From positions 1-17,405 of the forward strand of contig JBKJLF010000370.1 of NCBI GenBank assembly GCA_046597185.1: DNA of 17,405 bases. Direction: 5' to 3'. This DNA is from Burkholderiaceae bacterium (lineage in GTDB: Bacteria; Pseudomonadota; Gammaproteobacteria; Burkholderiales; Burkholderiaceae_D). This document shows positions 1 to 16,961 of this stretch, piece after piece. The position numbers and the translations under genes were made by a program. Under the pieces are notes generated by a model. That model was not told the DNA's origin and ran no database searches. It was given only the letters and a program-made list of their open reading frames with translations. The first letter of the stretch is position 1. Every line of letters starts with the position of its first letter.

Positions 1-172
1 CCGCACGTTCAGCCTCCAGTTCCCGGATACGCGCCTGAATTTGCTCTGCGCTCCATGCTACCGCATTGGCATGCTCAGTGCTTAAGTCGGGCGTTTGCGC
101 CCATGCTGCCGTGCCCACGCACCATGCCATCCCCAAGGCAAGGAAGCACTTCATCATTTGAGCAACCATCAT
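1..172 (-). CDS. N-terminal part of an exported hypothetical protein. The gene runs off the left edge of the window.
   Basis: The minus-strand reading frame starts at ATG 172 (alternative starts ATG 169 and 157) and stays open to position 1. It translates as MMVAQMMKCFLALGMAWCVGTAAWAQTPDLSTEHANAVAWSAEQIQARIRELEAER. The hydrophobic core followed by AWA-Q looks like a signal peptide. AGGAGG lies just upstream (revcomp of about 176-181). The gene sits just after the stop of the 219..899 gene on the same strand. It is missing from the ORF track because there is no stop codon inside the window. Confidence 0.4.
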   Translation of the reverse strand, partial: MMVAQMMKCFLALGMAWCVGTAAWAQTPDLSTEHANAVAWSAEQIQARIRELEAERA

Positions 173-218
173 ATCCTCCTGAACCTGGTGCCACACCCAA
201 AAACCCGATTCAACAATC

Positions 219-899
219 TCAGCTTGCCTGCCAGAAAAACAAGGCCGTCATCCGCTTCTCATTGTGTTCCACACCAAAATAATTGGTGGCCGAATGCACC
301 AGGTCGGCGCGATACATAAAAATCCGGTTGAACACGTTATCCACCGATAAATCTTCCGCCCACGCCTGCAATGGCAACTTTGTCATACCCAAGGCTTCGC
401 CCAAATTATTATGCGGCGGCGTACATTGATTGCCACCCAGGGTGCCATTCGGATAACGCAAACGATAAAACGAGGTGCCACAATGCGGCTCAGGATTCGG
501 TGACAGATAGATAACGGCAGCATAGCGGCATAATTTTCGTGAATCGCTATGCGGTCTTGGCCCAGATTCTCTTTCACCGACCAATTGCGCGCAATTATGA
601 TTCAGTTTAGCACCTTGTGGCGCTTCTGGTTGCCATAATTTCTTGGACCCTGTCATTTTTTTTACCCAATTTTCAATATAGACTATTTCTTCGGGCGTCA
701 TGGCGTTATGGCTGCGCATGCCGGGCCAAAATTCCTTGGCGTGAGGAAATCCCAATTCCCAATCGGTACGGGAAAATAGCCGCTGGGAAACTTCTTCCGC
801 ATTCGGCAAAAAATTATCTTGAACCCAGTAATCCCGTCCCAGTTGTAATTTTCTATAATTTAGGGTTGGAGGTTTGGATGGTGCAGGTGGTTTCAACAT
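219..899 (-). CDS. Hypothetical protein, 226 aa. Possibly a 2OG-Fe(II) oxygenase-like (double-stranded beta-helix) fold.
   Basis: Long ATG-initiated ORF with a protein-like composition. An HSD triad-like motif (RPHSDSRK) is followed by AVIYLSPNPEPHCGTSFYRLRY, and later DLVHSATNY...HNEKR, which resembles the HxD...H...R pattern of 2OG oxygenases. No family was confidently recognised. It is transcribed divergently from the FHA gene. Confidence 0.55.
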   Translation of the reverse strand: MLKPPAPSKPPTLNYRKLQLGRDYWVQDNFLPNAEEVSQRLFSRTDWELGFPHAKEFWPGMRSHNAMTPEEIVYIENWVKKMTGSKKLWQPEAPQGAKLNHNCAQLVGERESGPRPHSDSRKLCRYAAVIYLSPNPEPHCGTSFYRLRYPNGTLGGNQCTPPHNNLGEALGMTKLPLQAWAEDLSVDNVFNRIFMYRADLVHSATNYFGVEHNEKRMTALFFWQAS

Positions 900-982
900 G
901 GCTCAGTGTCACAGAAAAAGGGAAAGATATCAGTGTAAAGCAAAGTCCCACAAAAAACACTTTTCTTTTCAGGGTTTTTAGT

Positions 983-1016
983 TGCGTTGATGTTGCGTCG
1001 ATGCTGCGTGAAATGG
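983..1016. promoter_or_regulatory. Three tandem imperfect 11-12 bp direct repeats in a divergent intergenic region: ttgcgttgatg / ttgcgtcgatg / ctgcgtgaaatg.
   Basis: Read directly at 983-993, 994-1004 and 1005-1016, about 57-90 bp upstream of the FHA gene start (1073) and about 85-120 bp upstream of the divergent 899 start. Iterated short repeats of this kind are typical transcription-factor binding arrays. Confidence 0.3.
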
Positions 1017-1072
1017 CCAACATGGGATCAATTATGGCGTAAACTAATACCGTCTTCTCTTATAAGCCAACC

Positions 1073-2626
1073 ATGATCAAATGCGCCAATCCGAATCATC
1101 CTTTTTGCACCCAATGGGTCTTACCCGGTGCAGCGGTATGTGGCGCGCAACATGTTCAGCCTGGAGTAACCGTGACACCACTCCCCGCCAAAACACTGGA
1201 TACAAACAGCAATACGCCATTGACAGACAAGGCGCGCCAAGCCGCCATTGAGCACGCCAAACAAACCTTGGCTCAATCCCAGTCCCACTCCCAGCCCCAC
1301 TCCCAGCCCCACTCCCAGTCGCCCCCTATTCAAGCGGCATTGCAAACCAGCCCCAAATCGAATCGGCGTAGTGCTTCAAATATTGAAACCGCCATACCCT
1401 ATTTACATTTTAGCGGCTTTGATCCACGCGCTGCAGGTGGTCGGCAAACGCTGAAAATAGAATTACTCGGCATGGCCGCCGAGTTAGGCACCCAACTGGA
1501 ATTGAGCGTGCATTCCGAATTAGTAAGCAATGGCCGGGCCGAACATATTTTTGTGCGCACCACCCGTGGCCATTGGCGGCCGGTATTACTCGAATTTTCT
1601 TCCCGTAATCGCGAACACGGGCAATATCGCATGGATATTGAATTGAAATATCTGTTTGGCGGGAAAATCAGTCGGCAATGGGTTTGCACGCCAGTATTAT
1701 TGGTGCCACGCAAAGATGCCAGCCTGGATGATATTCACCGGATTTTTTTGGGGCGACATAAAAATGTGAAAGTGATGGTGGATGATGCCTCGATTGCCAA
1801 AATCAGCGGTTATCAATCAGCCGACCAATTCGACATCACCACCAAAAACGCGTCGATTGCACAGCTCGACTTTAGCGCGCCCAAAGGTAAAATCGATGTT
1901 GGCTTTACCAGCATTGCCTGGGATGAAGATTTGCTTGAAATTGATATCCAGCAGCAGGCCATCTTTCATCCGGACCCCGCTACCTGCGCCGTGCTCTCCA
2001 ACCCGCTTTGCCAGCCGCAATTATTTCAGCTCTACGCGCTCGATCAAATCGTGATTGGGCGGCATGATGATCAGGCATCGGTCGCCAATATTTTGCTAAG
2101 GCAACACAATCCAGTCAGCCCCGAATCAACTATTGAAACCAAGCCTAATTCCGCCACCGAAACCAGCTTAACCCGCAGAATTAGCGCACGCCATGCGGTA
2201 ATCCGCCTGATTGAACAACATTTTGAAATCGAAGATATTTCCCGTTTTGGTTTGTTGATTAATGGCAAATGGCCAGGCAAGGGCAAGTCGGTGTTACTCA
2301 AGAGCGATATGCGTTTGGGTTTTACTGCCAGCTTTAAAGATATTGTCAACTTGCAGGTGGTGGCCTTGAGCCGCCATGCTTTGGTGCTGCAAACCCAGGA
2401 TTTGAGCGAATGTTTTTATTGCCTGGTGCCCGAGATGGGGATCACCGCAACGCCGCCGAATTGGCCGCATCATCTGCCGCTGCTGTATCATCAGCATGGC
2501 GGTTTTTGGCATTGGGATCAAGACCAGCAAAAAGCCAGTGCGCTCAGTAATGCCAGCGGTTTGACTGGCTTACAAGGCTTTGCCAGCGCCTATCAATTTC
2601 AACATGGTGGCACCTTGACTGCCTGA
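1073..2626 (+). CDS. Zinc-ribbon-like N-terminus plus low-complexity SQPH repeats plus an FHA (forkhead-associated, phosphothreonine-binding) domain protein, 517 aa.
   Basis: The N-terminus MIKCANPNHPFCTQWVLPGAAVCGAQ resembles a degenerate zinc ribbon (C...NP..FC....PGAxxCGA). A stop codon at 1040 precludes any upstream extension. An FHA signature is present: IVIGRHDDQ ... ISARHAVI ... FEIEDISRFGLLINGK (G-R ... S-R-H ... S-x-x-G ... N-G). The region between them is of unknown beta-rich type. Confidence 0.8.
   Translation: MIKCANPNHPFCTQWVLPGAAVCGAQHVQPGVTVTPLPAKTLDTNSNTPLTDKARQAAIEHAKQTLAQSQSHSQPHSQPHSQSPPIQAALQTSPKSNRRSASNIETAIPYLHFSGFDPRAAGGRQTLKIELLGMAAELGTQLELSVHSELVSNGRAEHIFVRTTRGHWRPVLLEFSSRNREHGQYRMDIELKYLFGGKISRQWVCTPVLLVPRKDASLDDIHRIFLGRHKNVKVMVDDASIAKISGYQSADQFDITTKNASIAQLDFSAPKGKIDVGFTSIAWDEDLLEIDIQQQAIFHPDPATCAVLSNPLCQPQLFQLYALDQIVIGRHDDQASVANILLRQHNPVSPESTIETKPNSATETSLTRRISARHAVIRLIEQHFEIEDISRFGLLINGKWPGKGKSVLLKSDMRLGFTASFKDIVNLQVVALSRHALVLQTQDLSECFYCLVPEMGITATPPNWPHHLPLLYHQHGGFWHWDQDQQKASALSNASGLTGLQGFASAYQFQHGGTLTA
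1274..1320 (+). repeat. Tandem 12-bp coding repeat (ccactcccagcc, 3 copies plus partials) that encodes SQSHSQPHSQPHSQSP.
   Basis: Read directly at 1285-1296, 1297-1308 and 1309-1320 (last copy ccactcccagtc). It lies in frame within the FHA gene. Confidence 0.7.
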
Positions 2627-2658
2627 TCACAGGGGCAAAGGATCACAGGATCAAAGAA

Positions 2659-5058
2659 TCATGGCAGCGGATCAGGGGTCGGTGTGGGCTGCAATTCATG
2701 CAATTCAGGCAATTCGCGCACCACGCGTGCGCCCACGATGTCGTTACGGCCACTGGCACCATAGCCATTGCGCGAAGCCGAGCGTGCATAGCGCGGGCCA
2801 TACAACCAACTGCCGCCACGCAGAACGCGCCGCCCAAGGTCGCCCCCACTCTCCCAGGCACTGCCGTCAATCGGCGCGCCTTCGTAATGGTCATGCACCA
2901 CATCCTGCACCCATTCCCAAACATTACCATGCATATCGTACACACCCCAGGCATTCGGGGTGAACCGTCCCGCTGGCGTGGTGCCACGGCGAAACTCACC
3001 TTTTGGCCCGCTGTTATAGGTAAAATTACCGTCGTAATTGGCCAGATCGGTATGAATTTGATCGCCAAAATGAAATGCCGCCTTGCTGCCTGCGCGCGCG
3101 GCGAATTCCCATTCCGCCTCCGAAGCCAGGCGGTATACATGACCGGTGACGCTGGAGAGCCAGGCGCAATAGCTTTGCACATCATGCCAACTGATCCACA
3201 CCACCGGGTGGGTGTCGTCTTGCGCAAAACCCGGTTGCTGCCAATTATTTTCACTCTCATCCTGCCAACCGGTGGCCTTGGCAAACTGACGCCACTCGCC
3301 GACGCTGATCGGGTGTTTGGCGATGGCAAAGCCATGTTCGATACCAACCCAATGTGGCGGCGTTTCACGCCGCAACCATGAACCGGCCGCGCCTGCATGC
3401 AAGGCAGTTTGGCGCTCGGTTTCGGAAGAACCCATCAAAAAGCGCCCGGCAGGCAATACCACCAACAAGGGGCCAACGCCAGAATGGTCGAGAAAAGTAT
3501 CGCGAAACGCCACCCCCGGCGCTTCCGGCTGGATTTGGGCCTGGCTCTCGCGCAACCGCGCTTGCGCCTGTTCGGCGCGTTTTTGCTGGGCCAGTAGTTG
3601 CTCCTGGCGTTTGCGCTCTTGCTCTTGGCGTTTGCGCTCTTGCTCCTGGCGCGCCGCTTTTTCTTCTTGCGCCTGGCGCTGTTGCTGTTCCTCGCGCAAG
3701 CGCCGCGCTTGCTCACGCAGGGCGGCGGTACGCTCCACGGCTTGCTGTTTGCGTTGCTCCTGCGCCAGTTTTTGTGCCTGCTTTTGCGCCGATTCCTGCG
3801 CCAGAATTTGGGCTTGAACTTGTGCCTGCGCTTGGGCCTGAGCCTGAGCCTTTGCCTGGGCCTGCTTTTTCTGCTGCTCTTGCTGCTGCTGTTGCTGCTG
3901 TTGCTGCTGTTGCGACAGCGGCGCACGCCCTGCCAGCACGTTGGCGGGTACAGGCGTTACTTGCGCCGAAGGCGTAGTGACATGCACCGCCGCCAACCTG
4001 GGGCCAAGCACAGGCGCGGAAGGTGGCGCAGGCAAAGGTGGCGGCTTGGATAAAACCAACATTTCCGGCTGAAACAAGTCATTCAACAATTCCAGCGCCG
4101 AATGCGGGCGCGCTTCCGGTTGCCAGGCAAAACCACGCTGCAAAATACGCCATTGGCGCGCATCCAGCATGCCCGGTTGCACGGGCACCTGTTGCATCTG
4201 GCGCACATCGCCAAAGGGCAACTCACCCACAATCATTTGGTAAATCATCACCGCCAAGGCATACACATCCAATTGTGGGCCGGGTACGCGCTGGCGCAAA
4301 CCCGCTTCCGGCGCACGGTAGCCGGCCGTGCCAGCATTGGCGGGAATGGACGAACCCACCACATCACGCACGCGGGCAGCGATGCCAAAATCGAGCAATT
4401 TGATTTCACTTTGCCCGGTTAAAAACAAATTACTGGGTTTCAGATCACGGTGTACCAATTGATGTTTGTCCCAGGCATAGCGCAAAGCCTGGGCCACCGG
4501 TTGTAAAAATTGATGTACCTGGGGCATGGTAAACGGGCCGCGTTCGGCCAGGAGGCGATCCAGATCATCGCCTTCCAAATATTCCATGATGATGAAATAA
4601 CAGGTGGTGGCCGGGTCTTGCGCCCATTCGTAGACGCGCACGATATGCTCATGCGCCAGTTTGCGCGCCTTAGTCGCTTCTTCCACCAGCAAGCGCGCAT
4701 GCAAGCTGCTTTGCGTCCATTCTGGCGGCAGGATTTTTAGCGCCACTTTGTCGCTATGGCCCAGTTCGGCCTGGGTGGCCAAATCAATTGCCAACCAAAC
4801 CTGGCCCATGCCGCCCTGGCCCAATTGGCGCTCCAGCCTATAGCGTTTATCGACCGGCCCCAACTCTTGCCCGATTGCCAGACCCAGTTCCGTGCCATTT
4901 TCCGGCGCACGCGCATGCGGCCCACGCTTGGGGCCGGTGGGGGCCAGTTGCGCATCCAAAATGGCGTTTTTGCGACGATCAAATTCTTCCTGGCTGAGCA
5001 AGCCATCATCGTGCAGGGCACGCAATTCATGAATTTTATCTCGGGCGGTCTTACTCAT
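2659..5058 (-). CDS. Soluble Hanks-type Ser/Thr protein kinase, 799 aa. It combines an N-terminal SHOCT-like helix, a poly-Q/charged coiled-coil linker and a C-terminal FGE-sulfatase (SUMF1/DUF323-like) domain.
   Basis: Kinase motifs are present: glycine loop LGQGGMGQVW, beta3 lysine VALKIL, catalytic loop HRDLKPSNLFL, DFGIA, and APE-like GYRAPE. The N-terminus ARDKIHELRALHDDGLLSQEEFDRRKNAIL matches the SHOCT pattern. The linker contains an 11xQ run, AQAQAQAQAQ and (QERKRQE)n. The C-terminus has FGE-type motifs HPVVWISWHDVQSYCAWL, YRLASEAEWEFAARAGS, GNVWEWVQD and RVLRGGSWLYGPRYARSASR. The CxPxR-type catalytic cysteines that follow GGSW in true FGEs are absent. No hydrophobic transmembrane segment is seen. 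Confidence 0.9.
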   Translation of the reverse strand: MSKTARDKIHELRALHDDGLLSQEEFDRRKNAILDAQLAPTGPKRGPHARAPENGTELGLAIGQELGPVDKRYRLERQLGQGGMGQVWLAIDLATQAELGHSDKVALKILPPEWTQSSLHARLLVEEATKARKLAHEHIVRVYEWAQDPATTCYFIIMEYLEGDDLDRLLAERGPFTMPQVHQFLQPVAQALRYAWDKHQLVHRDLKPSNLFLTGQSEIKLLDFGIAARVRDVVGSSIPANAGTAGYRAPEAGLRQRVPGPQLDVYALAVMIYQMIVGELPFGDVRQMQQVPVQPGMLDARQWRILQRGFAWQPEARPHSALELLNDLFQPEMLVLSKPPPLPAPPSAPVLGPRLAAVHVTTPSAQVTPVPANVLAGRAPLSQQQQQQQQQQQEQQKKQAQAKAQAQAQAQAQVQAQILAQESAQKQAQKLAQEQRKQQAVERTAALREQARRLREEQQQRQAQEEKAARQEQERKRQEQERKRQEQLLAQQKRAEQAQARLRESQAQIQPEAPGVAFRDTFLDHSGVGPLLVVLPAGRFLMGSSETERQTALHAGAAGSWLRRETPPHWVGIEHGFAIAKHPISVGEWRQFAKATGWQDESENNWQQPGFAQDDTHPVVWISWHDVQSYCAWLSSVTGHVYRLASEAEWEFAARAGSKAAFHFGDQIHTDLANYDGNFTYNSGPKGEFRRGTTPAGRFTPNAWGVYDMHGNVWEWVQDVVHDHYEGAPIDGSAWESGGDLGRRVLRGGSWLYGPRYARSASRNGYGASGRNDIVGARVVRELPELHELQPTPTPDPLP
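3600..3915. repeat. Low-complexity DNA repeats inside the kinase linker: a 21-bp tandem (ggcgtttgcgctcttgctcYt, 2 copies), gcctgR hexamer runs (3821-3860), and a CTG/TTG triplet tract (3871-3913).
   Basis: Read directly: 3606-3626 and 3627-3647 are near-identical; ctgctgctgttgctgctgttgctgctgttgc encodes poly-Q on the minus strand. Confidence 0.7.
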
Positions 5059-5088
5059 GGGTTTAGCTCAAATCGAAACACAGAACGG

Positions 5089-5114
5089 TTGATATCAAGA
5101 TCAGGCTTGATCTT
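5089..5114. promoter_or_regulatory. Two adjacent palindromes in the 54-bp intercistronic gap and gene end: TTGATATCAA (5089-5098) and a hairpin aagatca-ggct-tgatctt (5097-5114).
   Basis: Read directly. The 7-bp perfect inverted repeat overlaps the stop codon (5113-5115) of the upstream SPFH gene and precedes the kinase start (5058). It could be an RNA hairpin or processing site, or a protein-binding site. Confidence 0.3.
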
Positions 5115-7230
5115 ATACCAGCGGCGCGCCACATTCGGCACAAAACTTCGCCTTGGGCAAATTAATATGCCCTTGACGACAGGTGCGCATCACCAAAGGC
5201 GGCGGGCTGGCATCGCGGCTGGCTTGCAACATGGCCAACACATGTTCGCGTTCTTTGGCTGCCTGTTGCGCTTGCCACTCTCTTTCCTGCGCTACGCTTT
5301 TGGTGACCAGACCGGGAATAAATTCATTATCCGGCAGCACTTTGGCGGCGGAAATTTGTTCCGCGCTCATGCCGACCTGCACCTGGGTTTTTAAAATATC
5401 GGCCACCAGGCTGGCATTGGGTAAATCGGCCAGCGCCACTTTGGCCAAATCGCTGACCTGATCCAGCGCCGCGTAGCGCGCCAGCCGTTGTTGGTGGTCT
5501 TGCTCCTGCAAGCGCAAGGTATGTTGCCACGCGCCCTCTTGTTCTTGCTGGCGCAGGCGGCTACGCTGTTCTTCGGCGTCGAGTTCATCTTGTTGTTTTG
5601 CTCGTTGCTGCAACAATTCTTGCTGTTGCATGGCGGCATGGGCTTCGATGGTGCGCAGCAATTTTTCTTGTTGCGCCAGTGCATCGGCATTCGCGCCGGC
5701 ACGGGCCAAATCGGCCATTTTTTGCTTTTGCTGATCGATTTGCACCTGGGTTTGGGCATCCAGCACCGCTTCGGAGCGCAATAATTCGCGTTGTTGCTGG
5801 AGTGCCAATTCATCTTGCCAGGCTTGCAGCCGCTCGGCTTCGCGCGTGCGCGCCTGACGTTCCAGCGTGAGCGTGTGCAGGCGCGCCTGCTGCTGCTCGT
5901 CTTCCCATTGTTTTTCGTGTTCGGCGTGTTGCGCTTTCACTTGCCGCAAGCGCGCCAGTTCATCACGCCGGGTTTGTTCGTTGCCGATTTGTTCGATGGT
6001 GGCCAATTGCCGTTGCCATTGCCATTGCAATACTTGTTGCTTGAGTTGTTGCTGCGCCGCCAGAGTAATTTCACGCGCTTCGATTTGTTCCAGCTCCAGC
6101 TCGGTGCGCATTTTAATTTGGGCGATATGGCGCACTTGTTCCCAGCGTTTTTCTTCGGTATGGCGTTGGCTGGCATCTTGCTTGAGATCATGTTCCAGCT
6201 TGGTCAAGACTTCTTGCGCGCCGCGCTCCAGCGCCTGCTTGCGGTTTTGCGCTTCGATGATGCGGCCATACAATTCAATCTCGCGCACACGCAAGGCTTG
6301 CAATTGTTCGCGCTCTTCCAGCACCAGGTGAGCGCGCTGTTCGCGCTGTTCGCGCGCCAGTTGGGCGCGGCGCAATTGTTGGCGTTGGGCTTGTTCTTGC
6401 AACACAATTTGCGCCCATTGCTGCTCGGAATATAATTGCGCCAGCCGTTCGGCGTGTTCGGCCTCGACCCGTTTGGCGTTGAAAATCAAGGCTAAATTGC
6501 CGACCAGTTCACGGTTTTCATTCCATTTTTGATGTTGCAGGCTGAGGGTTTCGACTTGTACCAAACTTAGACCGAAATGCGCCATGCGCAGCGAGAGCGT
6601 GCTTTGCACCCGTTCATTGAGTTGTTCGCGCAATTGGGCATTGTTGACCAATTCCAACAACGATTGGGCCGATAAAAATTCAATCAAGACCTGGCGCAGC
6701 AAAGGTTGCACCAGGGTTTGCAATTGTTCCAATGTGATGGCACCGGGGGCTTGCATGAAGTAGTTGGAAAAGGCCGCCACGGGTTCGATTTTCACGCGCA
6801 GCATACAACTGACATCGAGCGCCAGAAATTCGGCGCTGGCGATGCCAGGTAAATTGAATGTCAGCTCGAAGGGCGTGCTGCGAGTGATCAGGATTTCGGC
6901 AGACCGGTCACACAAGAGTCTATCGAGTCGTCCGAAAAAGTCTTCAATCTGGTATTCACCCGGCGGCACTTCGGCGATGTGTTGCCCTTGCAAAATATAG
7001 GCACGCGCGGTGGCGGGCACTTGCAGGGTTTTACTGAATACCCCGGACAGGCGTTCGATACCGAAGAACACCGCCACTTCGTTTTCCGCTGGCAACCAGC
7101 GGTTATTACGCAGCAGCGGGTGGGCTTGCCCCAGGCTGATGCCGCATTGGGCACAATAATGGCCATCGCTTTGATTGACGTGATCACAGCGCGGACAAGG
7201 CGTGCCGCGTACTCCGAATAATGTAAACAT
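5113..7230 (-). CDS. Flotillin-like SPFH/band-7 domain protein, 705 aa, with an N-terminal zinc ribbon, a coiled coil of about 400 aa and a C-terminal zinc ribbon.
   Basis: The N-terminus has CPRCDHVNQSDGHYCAQCG (C-x2-C...C-x2-C). The C-terminus has CRQGHINLPKAKFCAECGAPLV (zinc_ribbon_2-like ...AKFCxxCGAPL). An SPFH-like core follows the N-terminal ribbon: ILQGQHIAEVPPGEY...FELTFNLPGIASAEFLALDVSCMLRVKIEPV...LLRQVLIEFLSAQSLLELVNNAQLREQLNERVQ...HFGLSLVQVETL. This is followed by a Q/E/R/A/L-rich heptad-like sequence. A strong SD (GGGGGAG) lies upstream of ATG 7230. Confidence 0.8.
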   Translation of the reverse strand: MFTLFGVRGTPCPRCDHVNQSDGHYCAQCGISLGQAHPLLRNNRWLPAENEVAVFFGIERLSGVFSKTLQVPATARAYILQGQHIAEVPPGEYQIEDFFGRLDRLLCDRSAEILITRSTPFELTFNLPGIASAEFLALDVSCMLRVKIEPVAAFSNYFMQAPGAITLEQLQTLVQPLLRQVLIEFLSAQSLLELVNNAQLREQLNERVQSTLSLRMAHFGLSLVQVETLSLQHQKWNENRELVGNLALIFNAKRVEAEHAERLAQLYSEQQWAQIVLQEQAQRQQLRRAQLAREQREQRAHLVLEEREQLQALRVREIELYGRIIEAQNRKQALERGAQEVLTKLEHDLKQDASQRHTEEKRWEQVRHIAQIKMRTELELEQIEAREITLAAQQQLKQQVLQWQWQRQLATIEQIGNEQTRRDELARLRQVKAQHAEHEKQWEDEQQQARLHTLTLERQARTREAERLQAWQDELALQQQRELLRSEAVLDAQTQVQIDQQKQKMADLARAGANADALAQQEKLLRTIEAHAAMQQQELLQQRAKQQDELDAEEQRSRLRQQEQEGAWQHTLRLQEQDHQQRLARYAALDQVSDLAKVALADLPNASLVADILKTQVQVGMSAEQISAAKVLPDNEFIPGLVTKSVAQEREWQAQQAAKEREHVLAMLQASRDASPPPLVMRTCRQGHINLPKAKFCAECGAPLV

Positions 7231-7375
7231 GGAAGCTCCCCCACAGTATCACGCGATTTTAACAGGGTACGGTGGGGTTGAACGGGGAATTAGCGGGGGA
7301 ATAAGGGTTCTGTTTTAAAATACAAATACCCGGCACTTATTATTTTTTGCCGATATTTCGTTTAAACTGCTTTGC

Positions 7376-7987
7376 ATGAACAAATTGTATACTCCCGCCA
7401 TCCTCACCCTTACCCAAAACAAGGGCTTGTTGCGTCCGCGTGACCTACGCGCAGCGGGCTTGCCGCGCACGGCTTTGGCGCACATGGTAGCGCAGGGGCA
7501 ACTGCTCAAGCTTGGGCACGGCCTGTATGCGCACCCGGAACGCACGCCCGACGCGCACGAGGCGCTGGCCGAAGTGGCGATCAAAAGTGCACAAGGGGTG
7601 GTGTGCTTGATTTCTGCTTTGCGGTTTCATAATCTCACCACTCAGCAATCCGCTGCCGTTTGGCTGGCCATTCCACACAAGGCGCACCCGCCCCGGCTGG
7701 CCTACCCCCGCTTGCAATTGGTACGGATGTCAGGTAGTGCCATGATCGAAGGAATCGAGGTGGTTGATGTGAATGGCGTGGCCGTGCGTGTGTTTTGCCT
7801 GGCCAAAACGGTGGTTGATTGTTTTAAATATCGCAATAAGATTGGGTTGGATGTGGCCCTGGAAGCGCTGCGCGAAGCGATCAACGGTCAGCGTGTAACA
7901 CAGGATGAGCTGTGGCATTATGCCAGCTTGTGCCGGGTGGCCAATGTGATGCGGCCATATATGGAAATAATGGGTGCGTTGGGGTGA
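7376..7987 (+). CDS. AbiEi-family (type IV toxin-antitoxin / abortive-infection antitoxin-like) winged-HTH protein, 203 aa.
   Basis: The N-terminus LTLTQNKGLLRPRDLRAAGLPRTALAHMVAQGQLLKLGHGLYAHPE matches the AbiEi_4 wHTH pattern (G.v.r.dL...G......l...v..G.L.r...GvY). The C-terminal domain is ...GVVCLISALRFHNLTTQ... The gene is transcribed divergently from the SPFH/kinase operon across a 145-bp AT-rich gap. Confidence 0.75.
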   Translation: MNKLYTPAILTLTQNKGLLRPRDLRAAGLPRTALAHMVAQGQLLKLGHGLYAHPERTPDAHEALAEVAIKSAQGVVCLISALRFHNLTTQQSAAVWLAIPHKAHPPRLAYPRLQLVRMSGSAMIEGIEVVDVNGVAVRVFCLAKTVVDCFKYRNKIGLDVALEALREAINGQRVTQDELWHYASLCRVANVMRPYMEIMGALG

Positions 7988-8284
7988 CGATGACAAAAAA
8001 TTGGTTGGCTGGCGCGCCATTGATGGAAGTAGTTGACGTGTTGCGAATATTGTTGGAAGAATGAAATGGGGATACCAAATTTGAAGTGTAACGCCTATTG
8101 CAATCGCGAATCGAACCCCAAAAACCTCAGCTTACTTAAGCAAAGCGATCCGTTCAACTTCCTAGCAGCCTGTCGGAGATAAGGCAAAAAAAGACTCAAA
8201 AATTAACCACTTGAGCGATAAAAAATGTATAATATTGCTTATAAATATAATAGATCACTTTTGCCATGACCAATTTCATCCCAT

Positions 8285-8578
8285 CTACCCGCAACGCCTG
8301 TTTTTTATTCCCCCCAACAAATGTTGTGTGTAATGCCCGTTGAGCTAGCGCATGCCCGCCGACAAATTGGCGGCGGGCGTTTCGATCAGGATGTGATAAT
8401 GATTGCCCATTTGGCACCATACGTGGACAATCCAATTGAATCGTTCACAGACCAAGGCGAGTACGGTCAACCACGCGCGGCGGTCATCGTCGTCCCAAAA
8501 GATATCCTCCCGCCGATCCCCGCGTGAGGTGACGTGATATACCGCGCCAGCAAATTCAAGTCGTAGAGGTCGGGCCAC
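8285..8578 (-). pseudogene. IS200/IS605-like Y1 (HUH) transposase pseudogene (REP-associated tyrosine transposase-like).
   Basis: The 77-aa ORF MARPLRLEFAGAVYHVTSRGDRREDIFWDDDDRRAWLTVLALVCERFNWIVHVWCQMGNHYHILIETPAANLSAGMR matches the N-terminal half of about 230-aa Y1 transposases, including the HUH motif GNHYHIL. It ends at TAG (8345-8347). Homologues, as recalled, read RQLNGVYTQ there, and the next in-frame codons still read LNGHYTQ, so this is an in-frame nonsense codon (CAG to TAG). Similarity is lost after YTQ, which indicates a further frameshift or deletion. The C-terminal half is absent. Confidence 0.7.
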
Positions 8579-9014
8579 GGGGGCTGTTTAGCACATAGTT
8601 TGGGAAATGTTGGAATGTTAGAACTGCCCCTTACTCCCGCTCATTTGAGCCGTGGCTTTGGGGGGCATTACCGCGCTGTTTGCTTTGGGCTTGGTATTGA
8701 AGGCGATTTTGTAGTTTGGCTCAGCTTGGCCGTGCGCCAATCATTCGGGCTTGGTAAGGCAACCCGACAGCTTAATCAAATCAACGCAACCAGTTTGGCT
8801 TGCGCGATATTGATTTGCCAGATTTTGCAGGCATTGAAATTTTCTGCTCGTTTCTGTCAGCATGGCAGCGCTTACCTGTGGTTGTGTGCGAATCAATTAA
8901 TTGCATTCCATTGACTCAGTTGCATCACTGTTACACAGCCGTGCGACAGGTGGCCCAAGTGAATGTAACGGCTGTTATCGCCATATTCGATGGGGAACCA
9001 GACTTGATCGGCAA

Positions 9015-9242
9015 TCAAACCAGGTTCTTCTTCCCGGCGATCCGGCCTTTCATCGCCCCGTCGGCTACCGTAAAAAATGTCCGGCCATGATTTGATTCGA
9101 GAATTTGCAACTTGGTGTACTCAAGGAGCGGAAGCAAAGCATTGGATTTCCGCTCAAGCACATTCAACCACCCGGAGGCAGGGATTTTATTGACGTAGGC
9201 GGTCTTGGTGGGCAAGCTGGCATTGGCTAGGCGTTGGTTCAT
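9015..9242 (-). CDS. Hypothetical 75-aa ORF. It is overlapped by a third stop-free frame (8896..9120) and is probably part of a disrupted gene.
   Basis: Translationally coupled to the 9239..9550 ORF. A 73-codon open stretch in another frame (...SWPDIFYGSRRGDERPDRREEEPGLIADQVWFPIEYGDNSRYIHLGHLSHGCVTVMQLSQWNAIN) overlaps it and continues to 8896. Confidence 0.25.
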   Translation of the reverse strand: MNQRLANASLPTKTAYVNKIPASGWLNVLERKSNALLPLLEYTKLQILESNHGRTFFTVADGAMKGRIAGKKNLV

Positions 9243-9550
9243 ATTGGATTCGCTTTCAACATCAGAGCATCGGCAAGCTTCTGAAGTAATTTAAAATTCC
9301 CAGGTGAAAACGGATTGTCGTAAGTCTCAATTCGCTCAATAGAACTTGGGTCGGAAAATAATTCATTAATAATGGCAAGTTGCCTAAGGATTTGTGGCCT
9401 TAGTTTTTCTGTCTCCTTGGCGTTCATTTCATTTTCAATAATTTTATTTTTAATTAGTGCCTGCCAGAAAACCCTCTTTTTTAAAAAACGACTTCCTATA
9501 ATTTGGGCAGCCATTCCCGATTCATTAATTTTAGCACGACAAAATGGCAC
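9239..9550 (-). CDS. Hypothetical protein, 103 aa, in an AT-rich segment. Probably the first piece of a frameshifted gene remnant.
   Basis: ATG ORF in low-GC DNA. Its stop overlaps the start of the next ORF by ATGA. No family recognised. Confidence 0.3.
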   Translation of the reverse strand: MPFCRAKINESGMAAQIIGSRFLKKRVFWQALIKNKIIENEMNAKETEKLRPQILRQLAIINELFSDPSSIERIETYDNPFSPGNFKLLQKLADALMLKANPI

Positions 9551-9592
9551 TTCAAATCTAACGATGTGTTATCCAAGTAAAAACACAAAATT

Positions 9593-10192
9593 TTAAACGA
9601 GCAGATCCACCGACTTGCAATATCGATCATTAAAACTGTGGGAATTTTTACTATAACTATGCCGCCAATTTATCCGACGGCACCTATTTTGTGCGCTTTG
9701 CTTCACGCGCCAATTGCTGCTGTTCCTGCTGCCATAAAATGTGGCCGATCCGGTGGATGTTGCGCGCCACAATCGCCAACGCCACATAACATTTAAAGCC
9801 TTCGATGCCATGAGCCGGGCCAGATATGGGAAAAGCAACACCGCAGCAAGCCTGCTGCCCCGCCAGAACAGAACAATGGTTGCGGCGATAAGCGCCCAAA
9901 GTAGAAGTACTTCGGCGAAGGCCAGACCACCCTGATGCCAGACAAAGAACAACCAAGTCCATAGGGCGTTAGCGGCCAACTGGAAGATAAAGACAAGCAG
10001 CGCACTCTTGGCACCCGCAAAGCCTTGCGCTCGCCAAACCAGCCATGCGGATATGCCCATGAGCACGTAAAGCACCGACCAGACCGGGCCAAACAGCCAG
10101 CCCGGCGGTGCCCATGAAGGACGAATCAGCGCCCGATAGAATGTCCAAGCGCCACGACACCACACCGCGGGAATCAATAAAGTGTTCGACAA
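9593..10192 (-). CDS. tspO: TspO/MBR (tryptophan-rich sensory protein) homologue. It is N-terminally truncated and carries an atypical 55-aa C-terminal extension. Possibly a pseudogene.
   Basis: FYRALIRPSWAPPGWLFGPVWSVLYVLMGISAWLVWR, ...LWTWLFF... and FPYLA...LNVMWRWRL match the TspO pattern WY..L.KP.W.PP.W.F.PVW..LY..M..A...V and the C-terminal PYL...LN...RLN region. Only about 13 residues precede the WY motif, and they come from an alt-start TTG that overlaps the ycaO-fragment frame. TM1 is therefore missing. The ORF reads on through AT-rich DNA past the point where the TspO homology (about 158 aa in canonical TspO) ends. Confidence 0.5.
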   Translation of the reverse strand: MSNTLLIPAVWCRGAWTFYRALIRPSWAPPGWLFGPVWSVLYVLMGISAWLVWRAQGFAGAKSALLVFIFQLAANALWTWLFFVWHQGGLAFAEVLLLWALIAATIVLFWRGSRLAAVLLFPYLARLMASKALNVMWRWRLWRATSTGSATFYGSRNSSNWRVKQSAQNRCRRINWRHSYSKNSHSFNDRYCKSVDLLV

Positions 10193-10441
10193 AGTTATTG
10201 GGTTCGGTTACGGCATGGCTTTCAAAGGTGGGCGGGGGCAAGTCGTTGAGTCCTTCAAAGCTGCGGCCTTGCAGTAATTCGGTCAGGCTGCGCTCCAGCG
10301 CAACCTCCAGGCTGGGGTGCGCGCCAAAGGAAGCGAACACGCCGCCGGTGCGCGGGTTCATCAAGGTGACGCACATGACTGGATATTGCCCGCCTAACAG
10401 CATAGCCGAAAAATAGGGCATCGGTGTCAATCATCATTAAT
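10115..10441 (-). pseudogene. ycaO: Internal fragment of ycaO (YcaO-domain protein, ribosomal protein S12 methylthiotransferase accessory factor homologue). About 100 codons remain. The 5' two-thirds of the gene is missing.
   Basis: YFSAMLLGGQYPVMCVTLMNPRTGGVFASFGAHPSLEVALERSLTELLQGRSFEGLNDLPPPTFESHAVTEPNNFVEHFIDSRGVVSWRL aligns closely with my recollection of E. coli YcaO (...YDGSLGGQYPVICVVLFNPANGTCFASFGAHPDFGVALERTVTELLQGRGLKDLDVFTPPTF...HFIDSSGLISWDL...). The fragment begins abruptly next to the vapC stop (10442). It is followed, out of frame, by the tspO fragment. Confidence 0.7.
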
Positions 10442-10873
10442 TTATTGCACCAGATAAATCCCCACCCCCGCCTTGCTGGCAGCTTTACGCAAATCCTTGT
10501 CCAGCGTGGCTATCGGCAACTGGCATCGTCTGGCCAGTTCGAGATATTGGGCATCATAACCAGAGAGCCGAAATTCCCGCGATACGGCAGCAACTGCCAA
10601 TTGAATGGCAGCAGGTGAGGCAGCGTCAAGCCGGATTGGCAATTGGCCAAGTTGGTAGATAAAGCCGGTTACTGCGGACTCGCCAAAGCCATTGCGCTCT
10701 TCGGCGCAGCGCAATACGTGTATGGTTTCGGTGTACCAAAGCGCAGGTACGGTAGCATAGACCGTATCCAATGAATCGAGAACCAGATCGGCATAAACAC
10801 GATCAGCTTCCGACCCATCTTGCAATGCCCAGCGGATGGTAACCGAGGTATCCAGAACGAAACTGGTTTCCAT
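10442..10873 (-). CDS. vapC: PIN-domain ribonuclease toxin (VapC family), 143 aa.
   Basis: FVLDTSVTIRW (N-terminal Asp), ...YTETIHVL..., SGYDAQYLELA and PIATLDKDL supply the conserved acidic PIN residues. The start overlaps the antitoxin stop (ATGA at 10873). Confidence 0.85.
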   Translation of the reverse strand: METSFVLDTSVTIRWALQDGSEADRVYADLVLDSLDTVYATVPALWYTETIHVLRCAEERNGFGESAVTGFIYQLGQLPIRLDAASPAAIQLAVAAVSREFRLSGYDAQYLELARRCQLPIATLDKDLRKAASKAGVGIYLVQ

Positions 10874-11109
10874 TATTTACGGCCCTGCTGGCGCATTTCC
10901 GCAAAGCTTGCCTGATCAATCATGCCAACCCGTGTGGCTTTTATCGCTTTGATGGCCGCACGTGTTTGTTGTTCTGCACCGCTGGCGCTGGGCACAAGAT
11001 CAGCGACGGGCAAGCCACGATTGGTAATTGTAATTCTTTCGCCTTGTTGCACCTGTTTGATTAAGTCCGGCAATTTGGTTTTCGCCTCATAAATGCCATA
11101 TTCGCGCAT
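10873..11109 (-). CDS. Phd/YefM-family type II antitoxin, 78 aa.
   Basis: MREYGIYEAKTKLPDLIKQVQQGERITITNRGLPVADLVP matches the Phd/YefM N-terminal pattern (..eaK..l.eli..v..Ge.v.ItrrGkpvAvLv). It is translationally coupled to vapC. Confidence 0.8.
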   Translation of the reverse strand: MREYGIYEAKTKLPDLIKQVQQGERITITNRGLPVADLVPSASGAEQQTRAAIKAIKATRVGMIDQASFAEMRQQGRK

Positions 11110-11220
11110 GATTACCTCCAGCCATAGGTTTGATTAATATGGTCTAGTCTACCTGTCAGACCTAAACTATGCAAGCCGGAAATGATTCTATGCAGCGCAT
11201 AAGCGCTAAAGTACATTCAA

Positions 11221-11258
11221 TTCGTCTTCGCTGGTGAAGTTGGTGGCGAACACCACAA
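11221..11258. repeat. A 36-bp imperfect copy of an internal recR segment (tcgYcttcgctggtgaagttggtggcSaacaccac). The second copy lies inside recR at 11686..11721.
   Basis: Direct comparison shows 34/36 identical bases. On the minus strand the downstream copy would encode VVFATNFTSEDE, against [12 protein letters not shown] in recR. Homology stops abruptly at both ends. Confidence 0.6.
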
Positions 11259-11265
11259 TTGCAGC

Positions 11266-11502
11266 TTAATTAACCCCCATACCATTACATATCAAAGGTT
11301 GCGCTTTGCAATACGGCTCCAAGCTCAGAAAAACGGCTTTAGCAGCCACCTCGGGCGAAAAAATATGCCCGCCAAGCTTAAACTTCACCCACACACCTTT
11401 TTGCTTAATCAAACTTTTCAAAAATAGTTGTTGCCCATTAAAACGACTTGCTTGTAAATTGACGGGAATGATGAACTCACTCATATTCGCGTATGATTTC
11501 AT
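11266..11502 (-). CDS. Hypothetical 78-aa ORF in AT-rich DNA between the recR-like repeat and recR.
   Basis: ORF only. No recognisable motifs. May be non-coding. Confidence 0.2.
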   Translation of the reverse strand: MKSYANMSEFIIPVNLQASRFNGQQLFLKSLIKQKGVWVKFKLGGHIFSPEVAAKAVFLSLEPYCKAQPLICNGMGVN

Positions 11503-11538
11503 CCAGCCACGGCCAAGTACCAGGCTAAAGTAAAAGAT

Positions 11539-12141
11539 TCAAGTACTCCGCCGATCCAACATCGCACGCGCAATCGTGCCCGCATCCACATATTCCAGCT
11601 CGCCCCCAATCGGCACGCCACGCGCCAGCCGGCTCACGTGCAAACCACGCGCTTTTAAAATCTCACTAATATAATGCGCCGTGGCCTCGCCTTCGCTGGT
11701 GAAGTTGGTGGCCAACACCACTTCGGTCACCACGCCATCGCTGGCGCGATGCAGCAATTGTTCCAAATGCAAATCTTTCGGCAAAATACCATCCAAGGGC
11801 GAGAGATGCCCCATCAGCACGAAATACAAGCCTTTAAAGGTGAGGGTTTGCTCGATCATCACTTGATCCGCCGGGGTTTCCACCACGCACAGCAAATGCG
11901 GGTCGCGCCCATCGTCGGCGCAGGTGGCGCAGATTTCGGTTTCGGTGAAGGTGTTGCAATGGGCGCAATGCAACACGGTCTCGGTTGCGTTTTGCAAGGC
12001 CTCGGCCAATTGCAAAGCACCGCTGCGGTCGCGGTGCAGTAAATGAAATGCCATGCGCTGCGCCGTTTTGGGGCCAACGCCGGGCAGATGACGCAAAGCG
12101 TCAATCAGTTTTTCCAGACTGGTAGACGCTTTCACGCTCAA
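11539..12141 (-). CDS. recR: Recombination protein RecR.
   Basis: [17 protein letters not shown] (HhH), the C4 zinc finger [16 protein letters not shown], and the Toprim segment [21 protein letters not shown] are all present. The protein is collinear with E. coli RecR. Start is TTG 12141 or GTG 12135. Confidence 0.95.
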
Positions 12142-12151
12142 GCCTTCATCA

Positions 12152-12478
12152 TTAAAACGGCATCTTGAAGCCGGGTGGCATCGGCATGCCCGCCGTTAAC
12201 GAACCCATTTTTTCAGCCGAGGTTTCTTCTGCCTTGCGCACCGCATCGTTAAATGCCGCAGTGACCAAATCTTCCAACATGTCTTTATCATCGGCCAACA
12301 GCGACGGGTCGATGGTGACGCGCTTGACCACGTTTTTGCACGTCATCAACACCTTCACCAAACCCGCACCGGATTGGCCTTCCACTTCCACCAGGGCCAG
12401 TTGATCCTGCGCCTTTTTCATATTGTCTTGCATTGCCTGAGCCTGTTTCATTAAACCGGCCAATTGGTTTTTCATCAT
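12152..12478 (-). CDS. ybaB: Nucleoid-associated protein YbaB/EbfC.
   Basis: [17 protein letters not shown]...[10 protein letters not shown]...[24 protein letters not shown]...PPGFKMPF is nearly collinear with E. coli YbaB. The ORF-track start at 12496 adds 6 residues. ATG 12478 is the more likely start. Confidence 0.95.
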
Positions 12479-12519
12479 GGCATACTCCTTAATCAATCAT
12501 TAAAATCAGTCAAATCATG

Positions 12520-14727: not shown

Positions 14728-14769
14728 TTCTGCGAGCTGACCGATGACTATGAAACTTCAACAGAACTT

Positions 14770-14880
14770 CTACGGGGGTCAGGCGAGCCTGATCTGCGGC
14801 ACTTGTGGTTTGTGATCGTGGCTGCTTCGTTCCCGACCTGACCAGGTTAACCACGCCACAATGCGCAGGGGCCCGCCGAG
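14770..14880 (-). ncRNA. ffs: Signal recognition particle RNA (4.5S/SRP RNA, ffs).
   Basis: The minus-strand sequence ...UUGUGGCGUGGUUAACCUGGUCAGGUCGGGAACGAAGCAGCCACGAUCACAAACCACAA... contains the conserved domain IV core (compare E. coli CCAGGUCAGGUCCGGAAGGAAGCAGCC). Flanking segments are complementary (UUGUGG/CCACAA, CGUGG/CCACG). A TATAAT box lies immediately upstream. ffs adjacent to and upstream of dnaX is a known conserved linkage (e.g. scr-dnaX-yaaK-recR in Bacillus subtilis). The ends are approximate. Confidence 0.75.
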
Positions 14881-14884
14881 CGCT

Positions 14885-14890
14885 ATTATA
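14885..14890 (-). promoter_or_regulatory. -10 box (TATAAT on the minus strand) for ffs.
   Basis: The reverse complement of 14885-14890 is TATAAT, about 7-10 nt upstream of the predicted RNA 5' end. No convincing -35 was seen. Confidence 0.4.
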
Positions 14891-14981
14891 GCCGAAAACG
14901 TGGCAGCGTCCGAATTGCCGTGTTGTTCGAATATCTGCCCCCGACTTCCCCCACATTTTGTCCGCATTGCAGGCGCGGCCA

Positions 14982-16466: not shown

Positions 16467-16599
16467 AAGTTTTTTTGTTTTTTTGAATGTGAATTCAATT
16501 AGTCAGGTAAATCTATCAAGTACTTGATTCTATTCAGTTTTGTGATGCGACAGTGAAAAAAGTCAGACACAAAAGTTATAACAAACGCGTTTGATAGTA

Positions 16600-16628
16600 T
16601 TGACTTGATATAAAAGGCCTTTTACAAT
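16600..16628 (+). promoter_or_regulatory. Near-consensus sigma70-type promoter: TTGACT, 17 bp, TACAAT.
   Basis: TTGACT at 16600-16605, a 17-nt spacer, TACAAT at 16623-16628. It faces the gene at 16962, about 330 nt downstream. Confidence 0.4.
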
Positions 16629-16961
16629 CTGCCTCACTTGATGAAAAAACTGTTTTTTGCGTGATGCCACCGCCTGAAACAGAACCGAGGTCAGCCAAAC
16701 AGTTGACCACATCATTCACGGGGTTCGGGGCCCCAACAACATTATGGAGTGTTTTTTCTTAAGGCTTCTGCCTTCCCCCGGTGTAACGATTTGTCGAGTG
16801 GGTGCTTTGCACCTGGCTCACGCCAAGCAAATCTGGCCAGGCAAATCTGACGGCGTCTTTTGCGTGCATTGTGCGGCATTTGACGATATTTCTGATATTC
16901 GGTGTCGTACTGCAAATTCGCAGTTGGATTAGTGCGCGCCGCGATTATTCAGGGGAATACT

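Follow-up and report, generated by a model that had tools for sequence, protein, structure and literature searches.

What shared task could explain why a Ser/Thr kinase, a predicted phospho-threonine reader and a flotillin-like scaffold protein are encoded side by side in a Gram-negative betaproteobacterium? The question is raised by a 17,405-bp stretch of DNA, hereafter the window (GenBank assembly GCA_046597185.1, contig JBKJLF010000370.1, positions 1 to 17,405), whose UbiD falls within a 90%-identity cluster with Janthinobacterium, Duganella, Undibacterium and Telluria; its host is therefore an Oxalobacteraceae bacterium. A first-pass annotation of this DNA had described three genes as a possible undescribed defence or conflict system, and all three open reading frames (ORFs) were recovered at the coordinates it had given (Table 1): a zinc ribbon-SPFH-coiled coil-zinc ribbon protein, a SHOCT-kinase protein ending in a domain like that of the formylglycine-generating enzyme (FGE), and a forkhead-associated (FHA) protein encoded on the opposite strand. 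We put about even odds (a probability of roughly 0.5) on the reading that this triad serves the Oxalobacteraceae as a cytoplasmic Ser/Thr phospho-signalling module, passed on vertically and built on a flotillin-like scaffold, forming the reduced core of a larger gene set and linked to the cell envelope. The triad is a genuine and apparently undescribed phospho-signalling module, and its function is predicted here from sequences and structural models.

Linkage and gene company of the triad

A genome scan found relatives of the SPFH protein in 295 species genomes, and the best 80 loci belonged nearly all to Duganella, Massilia, Pseudoduganella, Rugamonas, Janthinobacterium or Telluria. Linkage was counted by tblastn over 85 related loci. 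The kinase-FGE gene lay directly downstream of the SPFH gene on the same strand in 83 of the 85, the two exceptions being contig ends, and an FHA orthologue converged on it from the opposite strand in 59, at a distance of ~0.03 to 7 kb from the kinase gene; in about ten fully flanked loci no FHA gene lay nearby. The pairwise identities of the three proteins, compared as matrices, were strongly correlated across 22 loci (Mantel r 0.94-0.97, p = 0.001). Because of the SPFH-kinase adjacency, the convergence of the FHA gene and the Mantel correlation, the triad is regarded as a genuine co-inherited unit. The first-pass annotation had called the three genes self-contained and had proposed gene-neighbourhood analysis as the check; both the linkage in other genomes and the unity of the genes hold, the triad being kept together across loci, occurring alone in two lineages and having its domains fused in other phyla.

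In Massilia, Duganella and their kin the triad lies where two gene arms converge. Arm B runs from a transpeptidase-domain protein of 1036-1117 aa, resembling class B penicillin-binding proteins (bPBPs), through four cytoplasmic proteins of no assigned family (about 425, 187, 486/332 and 346/330 aa), whose stop and start codons overlap, to the SPFH and kinase-FGE genes. Arm A comprises, in order, a glycine-zipper lipoprotein, a 344-aa Hanks kinase, an 818-aa SEDS (FtsW/RodA) protein, a 502-aa protein, an SH3_3 membrane protein, a PP2C phosphatase and the FHA protein, and Amidase_2 genes are also associated with the extended locus. FHA, PP2C, FtsW/RodA, transpeptidase PBP and kinase genes are co-located in this way in Massilia, Duganella and Janthinobacterium relatives, whereas the window has the FHA gene and one kinase gene only. 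The genes that flank arm A, Peptidase_M28 and an acetyltransferase, are common to Janthinobacterium, Massilia, Duganella and Pseudoduganella, so the locus occupies a conserved chromosomal position; in Janthinobacterium fluminis the arms are on separate contigs and the FHA gene remains with arm A. The transpeptidase and SEDS proteins both carry N-terminal extensions of ~400-770 aa without a Pfam match: a 1036-aa transpeptidase protein (locus L003, 1748-4858) has its domain at aa 772-1027 only, and an 818-aa SEDS protein (L091, 5401-7857) has the FtsW/RodA domain at aa 426-803.

Two lineages keep the triad alone. One is the lineage of the window (relatives L002 and L004), in which AbiEi and DUF6445 genes flank the triad; the other is a Pseudoduganella/Massilia eburnea subgroup (L027 and others), in which both arms are gone and the glycine-zipper and M28 flanks stay. 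The triad seems to be the core to which a larger, apparently undescribed gene set has been reduced. Its output is most likely cell-envelope or peptidoglycan remodelling, not phage defence, because the loci of relatives hold SEDS, transpeptidase, SH3_3 and Amidase_2 genes. The first-pass annotation had seen neither a PP2C phosphatase nor a nuclease in the window, and we likewise found none in the 17,405 bp; the missing phosphatase is explained by the relatives, which encode PP2C next to the FHA gene. In L027 an operon of DUF5691, MoxR (AAA_5), DUF5682 and VWA_CoxE genes (2584-8808) precedes the SPFH gene of this subgroup, which has no arm B.

A profile of the zinc ribbon and SPFH N-terminus (E <= 1e-10, sequences clustered at 50% identity) found 358 clusters, most of which share the zinc ribbon, SPFH, coiled coil, zinc ribbon architecture. 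In distant homologues the C-terminal zinc ribbon is swapped for one of the other domains of the triad, namely FGE-sulfatase (P0271, SPFH-coiled coil-FGE, from a Desulfobulbia metagenome-assembled genome), FHA (P0376, SPFH-coiled coil-FHA, from Eisenbacteria) or SHOCT (P0275 and P0304, at the C-terminus); a further homologue, P0306, has MIT_C and DUF4384. The neighbourhoods of such homologues are varied. L093 encodes an FtsK-like ATPase, two small proteins, a stand-alone FGE, the SPFH protein, seven proteins of no assigned family and an SH3_3 protein, and L095 encodes two kinases, PP2C, vWA, an FtsK-like ATPase, an SPFH-FGE protein, SH3_3, an AAA ATPase and a PP2C-like protein. In L098 (10947-13118) an SPFH-FHA gene stands beside a CHAT protease gene, with a kinase 3 kb off. 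A metagenome scan with alignment A6 gave 3 loci, of which L099 was the informative one (3529-16305): three unassigned proteins, FGE, a 1224-aa caspase, SH3_3, SPFH, one unassigned protein, caspase-FGE and a further FGE.

By BLAST, the arm-B proteins of 187, 486 and 346 aa (B3-B5) have homologues in L099 and L093, with their order kept in L099, and the PP2C and SH3_3 proteins are homologous across Oxalobacteraceae and distant loci. The recurrence of the same genes and homologues in distant neighbourhoods marks out a deep conserved core: the zinc ribbon-SPFH protein and a protein with an FGE domain, accompanied by B3-B5, SH3_3 and regulators of the PP2C and kinase types. In Oxalobacteraceae the FGE domain bears a kinase head, and a dedicated FHA protein is added. 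The head is a kinase in Oxalobacteraceae and a caspase in L099, there is none in L093, and in Desulfobulbia it is the SPFH protein itself; protease heads replace the kinase head in the L099 and L098 lineages. A broader proposal, which we hold only tentatively and would not expect to be the correct one, is that the triad represents, in minimal form, an undescribed system spanning phyla, in which a non-membrane zinc ribbon-SPFH cage and FGE sensors with interchangeable heads sense envelope damage or infection, the output being peptidoglycan remodelling (SEDS/bPBP) or caspase/CHAT cell death. An FtsK/SpoIIIE-family ATPase and one or two helical proteins of ~100 aa adjoin SPFH/FGE genes in two unrelated lineages (L093, 504-3119; L095, 4902-7447). 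A type VII secretion-like interpretation of these small proteins (100 aa in L093, 101 aa in L095) was dropped, no WxG motif being evident, and a coiled-coil protein, L095_u223, was considered as a PspA/ESCRT-III-like protein, for which no PspA/Snf7 Pfam match gave support.

Architecture of the three proteins and a proposed mechanism

The domain assignments of the first-pass annotation were upheld by Pfam for SHOCT, Pkinase, FGE-sulfatase and FHA, failed for Band_7, and for the zinc ribbons of the SPFH protein gave scores below cutoff. The SPFH protein of the window matched neither PF01145 (Band_7) nor PF13421 at E < 0.01. Its identity as an SPFH protein is nevertheless upheld, because PF01145 is matched, weakly, by some orthologues and distant homologues, and because the top 45 Foldseek matches of its AlphaFold2 model are all SPFH-family proteins, the best being prohibitin (E 2e-8) and others including flotillin, stomatin, HflK/C, QmcA and major vault protein. 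The model, a monomer with a mean predicted local distance difference test score (pLDDT) of 69 and a predicted template modelling score (pTM) of 0.34, predicts an SPFH alpha/beta fold followed by a helical region, in which K523-T527 and A530 are invariant in the orthologue alignment. Protein Data Bank (PDB) sequences searched with profiles of the SPFH and FHA alignments returned nothing useful.

Treble-clef zinc ribbons had been claimed for both the SPFH and the FHA protein. Zinc-ribbon Pfam models match the SPFH protein at both ends with scores under their cutoffs, and the putative ligands (CPRC...CAQC and C..H...CAEC) are conserved, all four Cys of the N-terminal ribbon being invariant in 21 orthologues and C684/H688...C697-x2-C700 conserved among orthologues. 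The FHA protein has no CxxC pair and no zinc-ribbon HMM match at its N-terminus; its conserved C-H-C-C-H ligands are better described as a putative zinc knuckle than as a canonical ribbon. A Kyte-Doolittle scan of the SPFH protein with a 19-residue window found no hydrophobic segment and hence no membrane anchor of the kind typical of stomatin, HflK/C and prohibitin. Transmembrane segments and signal peptides were found in none of the three proteins, so all three, the FGE domain and the SPFH protein included, are predicted to be cytoplasmic.

The Hanks kinase is apparently active, judging from its residues: the Pkinase match (aa 73-293, 153.4 bits vs a cutoff of 31.7, E 9.9e-45) goes with the sequence motifs GQGGMG, VALK, HRDLKPSN, DFG and YRAPE. 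The FGE-like domain is covered by PF03781 almost from end to end (aa 532-781, E 7.7e-57, model positions 5-255 of 255); its sequence matches in the PDB were PvdO, ToxD and FGE, with PvdO the nearest solved structure (5hha, E 1e-45). The active-site cysteines of human FGE, C336 and C341, lie in the motif SYMCHRSYC, which aligns with SWLYGPRYA of the window protein and so places Tyr and Ala at the two catalytic positions; the alignment used chain 2afy, which has Ser at the second cysteine position, so that GGSYMCHRSYS pairs with GGSWLYGPRYA. Both catalytic cysteines are lacking in this alignment, and because Tyr and Ala replace them the domain is read as a putative binding module, not a formylglycine-generating enzyme. 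Mean identity across orthologues of the kinase protein was 0.80 for SHOCT, 0.66 for the kinase domain, 0.63 for the FGE domain and 0.22 for the linker; SHOCT is the best conserved segment, and the FGE domain is about as conserved as the kinase domain and not hypervariable. The linker resembles the Q/E/R-rich helical region of the SPFH protein in being Q-rich. Diversification of the FGE domain by a diversity-generating retroelement (DGR) was considered and rejected, the window having no template/variable repeat pair or reverse transcriptase and the domain being conserved.

The FHA domain was recognised by Pfam at aa 367-417 (28.7 bits vs a cutoff of 20.7). Its phospho-threonine-binding residues G329-R330 and S371-x2-H374 are invariant in 25 homologues, and N397-G398 are present in the window protein. 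Foldseek matched the model of this protein best to the FHA domains of CHK2, Rad53 and MEK1, at a modest E of ~2e-3, and upstream of the FHA domain the model shows Ig-like strands (aa 110-209) with matches to Ig-like proteins, CARDB and protein 4.2.

These features suggest how the module might work. Like its structural relatives, the zinc ribbon-SPFH-coiled coil-zinc ribbon protein would assemble into an oligomeric ring or cage, without a membrane anchor. The kinase may dock on this scaffold through its N-terminal SHOCT helix pair, its FGE-like domain or both, a tethering that is proposed because SHOCT is the best conserved segment and because SHOCT and FGE are fused to SPFH elsewhere. The non-catalytic, PvdO-like FGE domain would bind a conserved cellular ligand, which is likelier than a fast-evolving invader molecule because the domain is not hypervariable. 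Clustering on the scaffold could then trigger Thr phosphorylation of the kinase or of the scaffold, for which the invariant T527 of the EKLLRTIEA motif offers a candidate site; the FHA protein would read the phospho-threonine mark and relay it via its conserved beta-sandwich and central domain, and PP2C, where present, would reset the signal.

Table 1. Positions of the genes, protein domains and intergenic segments in the window
Feature	Coordinates	Strand	Size	Basis or remark
Multidomain FHA protein (FHA gene)	1073..2626	+	517 aa	ORF; 813 homologues; convergent orthologue in 59/85 loci
N-terminal zinc knuckle (putative), C4-H9-C12-C23-H27	1073..1162	+		Cys/His nearly invariant; pLDDT 82-88
Beta-sandwich and central region	1394..1972	+	aa 108-300	dense invariant columns; motif LHxSGFDPRAAGGRQ...EFSS..EHGQY...IAWDEDL
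FHA domain	1970..2422	+	aa ~300-450	Pfam; invariant residues; pLDDT 84-95; Foldseek
Convergent FHA/kinase spacer	2627..2658		32 bp	holds tandem 16-nt repeat GATCACAGGnnCAAAG
SHOCT/Hanks Ser/Thr kinase/low-complexity linker/FGE-like protein (kinase-FGE gene)	2659..5058	-	799 aa	ORF; Pfam
FGE-sulfatase-like (PvdO-like) domain	2716..3465	-		Pfam E 7.7e-57; without both catalytic cysteines
Pro-rich, then poly-Q/AQ/coiled-coil linker	3529..4068	-	aa 331-510	sequence
Kinase catalytic domain	4069..4842	-	aa 73-330	Pkinase E 9.9e-45; sequence motifs
SHOCT domain	4957..5040	-	aa 7-34	Pfam 30.9 bits vs cutoff 27
SPFH-kinase intergenic spacer	5059..5112		54 bp	same-strand adjacency in 83/85 loci
Zinc ribbon-SPFH-coiled coil-zinc ribbon scaffold protein (SPFH gene)	5113..7230	-	705 aa	ORF; no transmembrane segment; orthologues in 295 species genomes
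C-terminal zinc ribbon C684-x3-H688...C697-x2-C700	5131..5181	-		conserved Cys/His; Zn_Ribbon_1 22.8 bits, aa 687-704
Helical Q/E/R-rich coiled-coil region	5212..6531	-	~440 residues, aa 234-673	AlphaFold2 model; invariant motif EKLLRT527IEA
SPFH (Band 7-like) alpha/beta domain	6532..7098	-	aa ~45-233	AlphaFold2 model, pLDDT 70-89; structural matches 1win, 4fvj, 9o9z
N-terminal zinc ribbon C12-P-R-C15...C26-x2-C29	7144..7197	-		conserved Cys; Pfam DZR, Zn_ribbon_3 below cutoff
Divergent intergenic region	7231..7375			promoter-like sites 7366-7339 (-, SPFH operon) and 7314-7343 (+, abiEi); consensus matches only
Orphan AbiEi-type winged helix-turn-helix regulator	7376..7987	+		PADLOC E 9.6e-79; Pfam AbiEi_4
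PhdYeFM/PIN toxin-antitoxin pair	10442..11109			just downstream of recR
DUF6445 gene	219-899	-		adjoins FHA gene

Surroundings in the window and competing explanations

The two gaps between the three genes have the sizes that the first-pass annotation gave (Table 1). It had also pointed to palindromes in the SPFH-kinase gap; inverted repeats are present there, but we consider them insignificant because they are 6-7 nt only (the best with 7-nt arms, AAGATCA/TGATCTT) and no T-run lies downstream. A scan of this 54-bp spacer found no terminator-like site, which suggests that the SPFH and kinase-FGE genes are probably co-transcribed. The convergent FHA-kinase spacer contains a tandem 16-nt direct repeat at 2625-2656 (copies GATCACAGGGGCAAAG and GATCACAGGATCAAAG), and in relatives it is a hotspot at which toxin-antitoxin, KAP NTPase and HicAB genes have inserted, with a nucleotidyltransferase/BrnT toxin-antitoxin insert in L004 and KAP NTPase plus HicAB in L087.

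Both the AbiEi-like regulator and the toxin-antitoxin pair named by the first-pass annotation are indeed neighbours. The AbiEi gene, transcribed divergently from the SPFH operon, adjoins the SPFH gene in L001 and L002 only, and no AbiEii partner was found among the ORFs of 7988-9590. This 1.6-kb segment has a GC content of 0.46-0.48, short ORFs only and no Pfam matches, and it may be degraded DNA; the insertion-sequence remnants that had been claimed for the window were not confirmed, Pfam searches on the small ORFs of the segment giving no match. On the same flank L002, the nearest relative (91% SPFH identity), carries DarT, a Macro-domain (DarG-like) protein, PhdYeFM and a 1670-aa NACHT/WD40/pentapeptide protein beside AbiEi (1070-8981), where the window carries TspO and the toxin-antitoxin pair; the AbiEi-side flank of the module is a variable island. 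Farther out in the window are the housekeeping genes recR, ybaB, dnaX and ubiD. An internal segment of recR recurs as a 35-bp copy (94% identical, encoding VVFATNFTSE; repeat sites 11222-11256 and 11687-11721). This copy and a 28-bp repeat beside the toxin-antitoxin pair (11097-11124 and 11482-11509) look, from their sequences, like an insertion or duplication footprint next to the dnaX-ybaB-recR trio. At the other end, DUF6445 is 85-95% identical in L002, L004 and L087, where FHA falls to 58-76%; its linkage to the FHA gene is restricted to the window lineage and absent from Massilia and Duganella loci, and a 141-aa ORF overlapping it (617-1042, +) is probably spurious.

Several observations weigh against an envelope-linked phospho-signalling module. 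SEDS, PBP, SH3_3, PP2C and B3-B5 genes were sought in the 17.4-kb window, which is an entire contig, and none was found, and the envelope link is carried over from relatives at 40-65% identity only. Shared vertical descent by itself would also produce the Mantel correlation, and confidence in the SPFH model is only moderate (pTM 0.34 for a monomer). The SPFH and FHA proteins evolve fast, with ~43% identity to Massilia/Duganella orthologues as against at least 90% for UbiD. Distant homologues associate with caspase-FGE proteins, CHAT proteases and FtsK-like ATPases, company more typical of conflict systems, and the genes next to the module in the window lineage are variable and defence-like (AbiEi and toxin-antitoxin genes; NACHT and DarTG in L002). 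The last three points are shared with the idea of an undescribed anti-phage or conflict system of an abortive-infection-like kind, in which the FGE (FGS) domain senses an invader, the kinase signals on the SPFH scaffold, and the FHA protein or an unlinked effector arrests growth. That idea also draws on the insertions of toxin-antitoxin, KAP NTPase and HicAB genes into the FHA-kinase gap, on the MIT_C/PLD-like domains that occur with caspase, caspase-FGE and CHAT near distant SPFH homologues, and on the variable enzymatic head N-terminal to FGE, which is the FGS syntax of conflict systems (PMC7159879). We nevertheless consider it unlikely. The module is confined to a single bacterial family and to a conserved place in the chromosome, has co-varying proteins and usually keeps company with SEDS and PBP genes; the triad has no effector, its FGE domain is not hypervariable and the window holds no DGR-like repeats. 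No copies of the module were found in 72,556 plasmids, 50,697 phages and IMG/VR. The defence-island setting proposed at first is therefore not borne out, and the neighbourhood, which on that proposal would not be a core one, is largely conserved across the family, which counts against defence. A PADLOC search had been suggested as a check and gave a mixed answer: AbiEi was matched, no model matched the SPFH or FHA protein, and the kinase matched PD-T4-6 and mad6 through its generic kinase domain only, far under the curated cutoffs.

A membrane-remodelling or stress module like the ESCRT- or PspA-associated SPFH systems, in which an SPFH cage is recruited to the membrane to direct repair or vesiculation there and phosphorylation controls its assembly, would agree with the top structural matches, which are membrane-cage SPFH proteins, with the AAA ATPase near the SPFH gene in L095 and with MIT_C on P0306; moreover, in archaeal ESCRT loci Ser/Thr kinase, phosphatase and FHA genes accompany those for SPFH-coiled coil-zinc ribbon proteins (PMC10936438). 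The analogy is one of domain vocabulary only, however, the SPFH protein of the window has no transmembrane segment or hairpin, and PspA, Snf7 and Vps4 families were detected in no locus, which leaves this explanation quite improbable in our estimation. Chance juxtaposition of three unrelated signalling genes might be entertained, since each of the three protein types (Hanks kinase, FHA, SPFH) is common in its own right and the window lies against a variable region, but adjacency and convergence are kept in dozens of species, the domains are fused in other phyla and the proteins co-vary, so that coincidence is effectively refuted.

Comparison with known systems

The first-pass annotation knew of no named system with this exact triad, and our literature search, whose coverage was incomplete, agrees: in the literature searched there was no description of the SPFH/kinase-FGE/FHA triad, of the extended Oxalobacteraceae cluster or of SPFH-FGE, SPFH-FHA and SPFH-SHOCT fusions. 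Several parts are already known singly, namely kinase-FGE fusions, SHOCT-kinase-FGE proteins, SHOCT-Band 7 proteins and, in archaeal ESCRT loci, SPFH-coiled coil-zinc ribbon proteins accompanied by kinase and FHA genes. SHOCT has been proposed as an oligomerisation module whose commonest companion is a Band 7 domain, and the same work noted a SHOCT-kinase-PG_binding-FGE architecture (PMC3581485); kinase-FGE fusions are also described for the 'Proteo1' family of bacterial Ser/Thr kinases (bioRxiv 10.1101/2025.01.12.632604). These proteins, among which Chlamydia Pkn1 may be counted, share with ours the Hanks kinase with C-terminal FGE and, in the SHOCT-kinase-PG_binding-FGE case, the N-terminal SHOCT; they are described as single proteins, and an SPFH scaffold or dedicated FHA link is not reported in the passages compared.

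Flotillin, prohibitin, stomatin, HflK/C, QmcA and major vault protein families form oligomeric rings or cages. According to its model, the window protein would have the same SPFH alpha/beta domain followed by a long helical region, but it differs from these scaffolds in having no membrane anchor, zinc ribbons at both ends and a helical region of ~440 residues; its partner is a kinase, not a protease or NfeD, and Pfam Band_7 misses it. FGS-domain effectors of vWA-MoxR/iSTAND ternary conflict systems (Kaur et al. 2020, PMC7159879) have the same C-terminal FGE/FGS domain behind variable N-terminal heads (kinase, caspase), and distant SPFH loci hold caspase-FGE. Unlike those systems, the triad has no vWA, MoxR, STAND or DGR component, nor is its FGE domain hypervariable; a MoxR-vWA cluster does adjoin the SPFH gene in L027, but in that one subgroup only.

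The threonine-phosphorylation pathway of type VI secretion systems (T6SS) consists of PpkA, Fha1 and PppA, and Stk2 is a kinase-based defence. These, with PD-T4-6 and MAD6 of MADS, likewise pair or employ a Hanks kinase with an FHA reader, but the matches here are generic and below cutoffs, T6SS genes were found neither in the window nor in the loci annotated by precomputed Pfam, and MADS genes were found neither in the window nor in any locus. A PpkA/Fha assignment was rejected, the TagH match (TIGR03354) being weak at 19.5 bits against a cutoff of 120, as was membership of PD-T4-6 or MADS, where the similarity is that of a generic kinase domain and the kinase scores equally against the PknB model.

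There is also a likeness in gene content to the actinobacterial fhaA-fhaB-pstP-rodA-pbpA-pknA-pknB cluster, which governs cell wall and division; Hanks kinase/FHA/PP2C control of peptidoglycan synthases is a textbook feature of Actinobacteria. The context of the PstP locus in that cluster has been described (PMC6554272). Most Oxalobacteraceae relatives have the same content (FHA, PP2C, SEDS, transpeptidase and two Hanks kinases), a likeness at the level of gene content, whereas the window has FHA and one kinase only. Here a zinc ribbon-SPFH scaffold, three unassigned proteins and an SH3_3 membrane protein are added, the SEDS protein and PBP are unusually long (818 and 1036 aa), and the host is Gram-negative. 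The fusions of SPFH with FGE, FHA and SHOCT offer a testable hypothesis on anchor-less bacterial SPFH proteins, on the SHOCT domain and on kinase-FGE and caspase-FGE proteins, and a scaffold that serves kinases in one lineage and caspases in another could be a rare chassis shared by housekeeping-type signalling and cell-death-type platforms. If the proposed phospho-signalling module is real, a differently built counterpart of the actinobacterial cluster in Gram-negative Oxalobacteraceae would be new biology in genetically tractable inhabitants of soil and water such as Janthinobacterium, Duganella and Massilia: no PASTA sensor is present, the candidate sensor is a cytoplasmic FGE-like domain, and a soluble flotillin-like scaffold together with this non-catalytic FGE sensor would stand in for PASTA.

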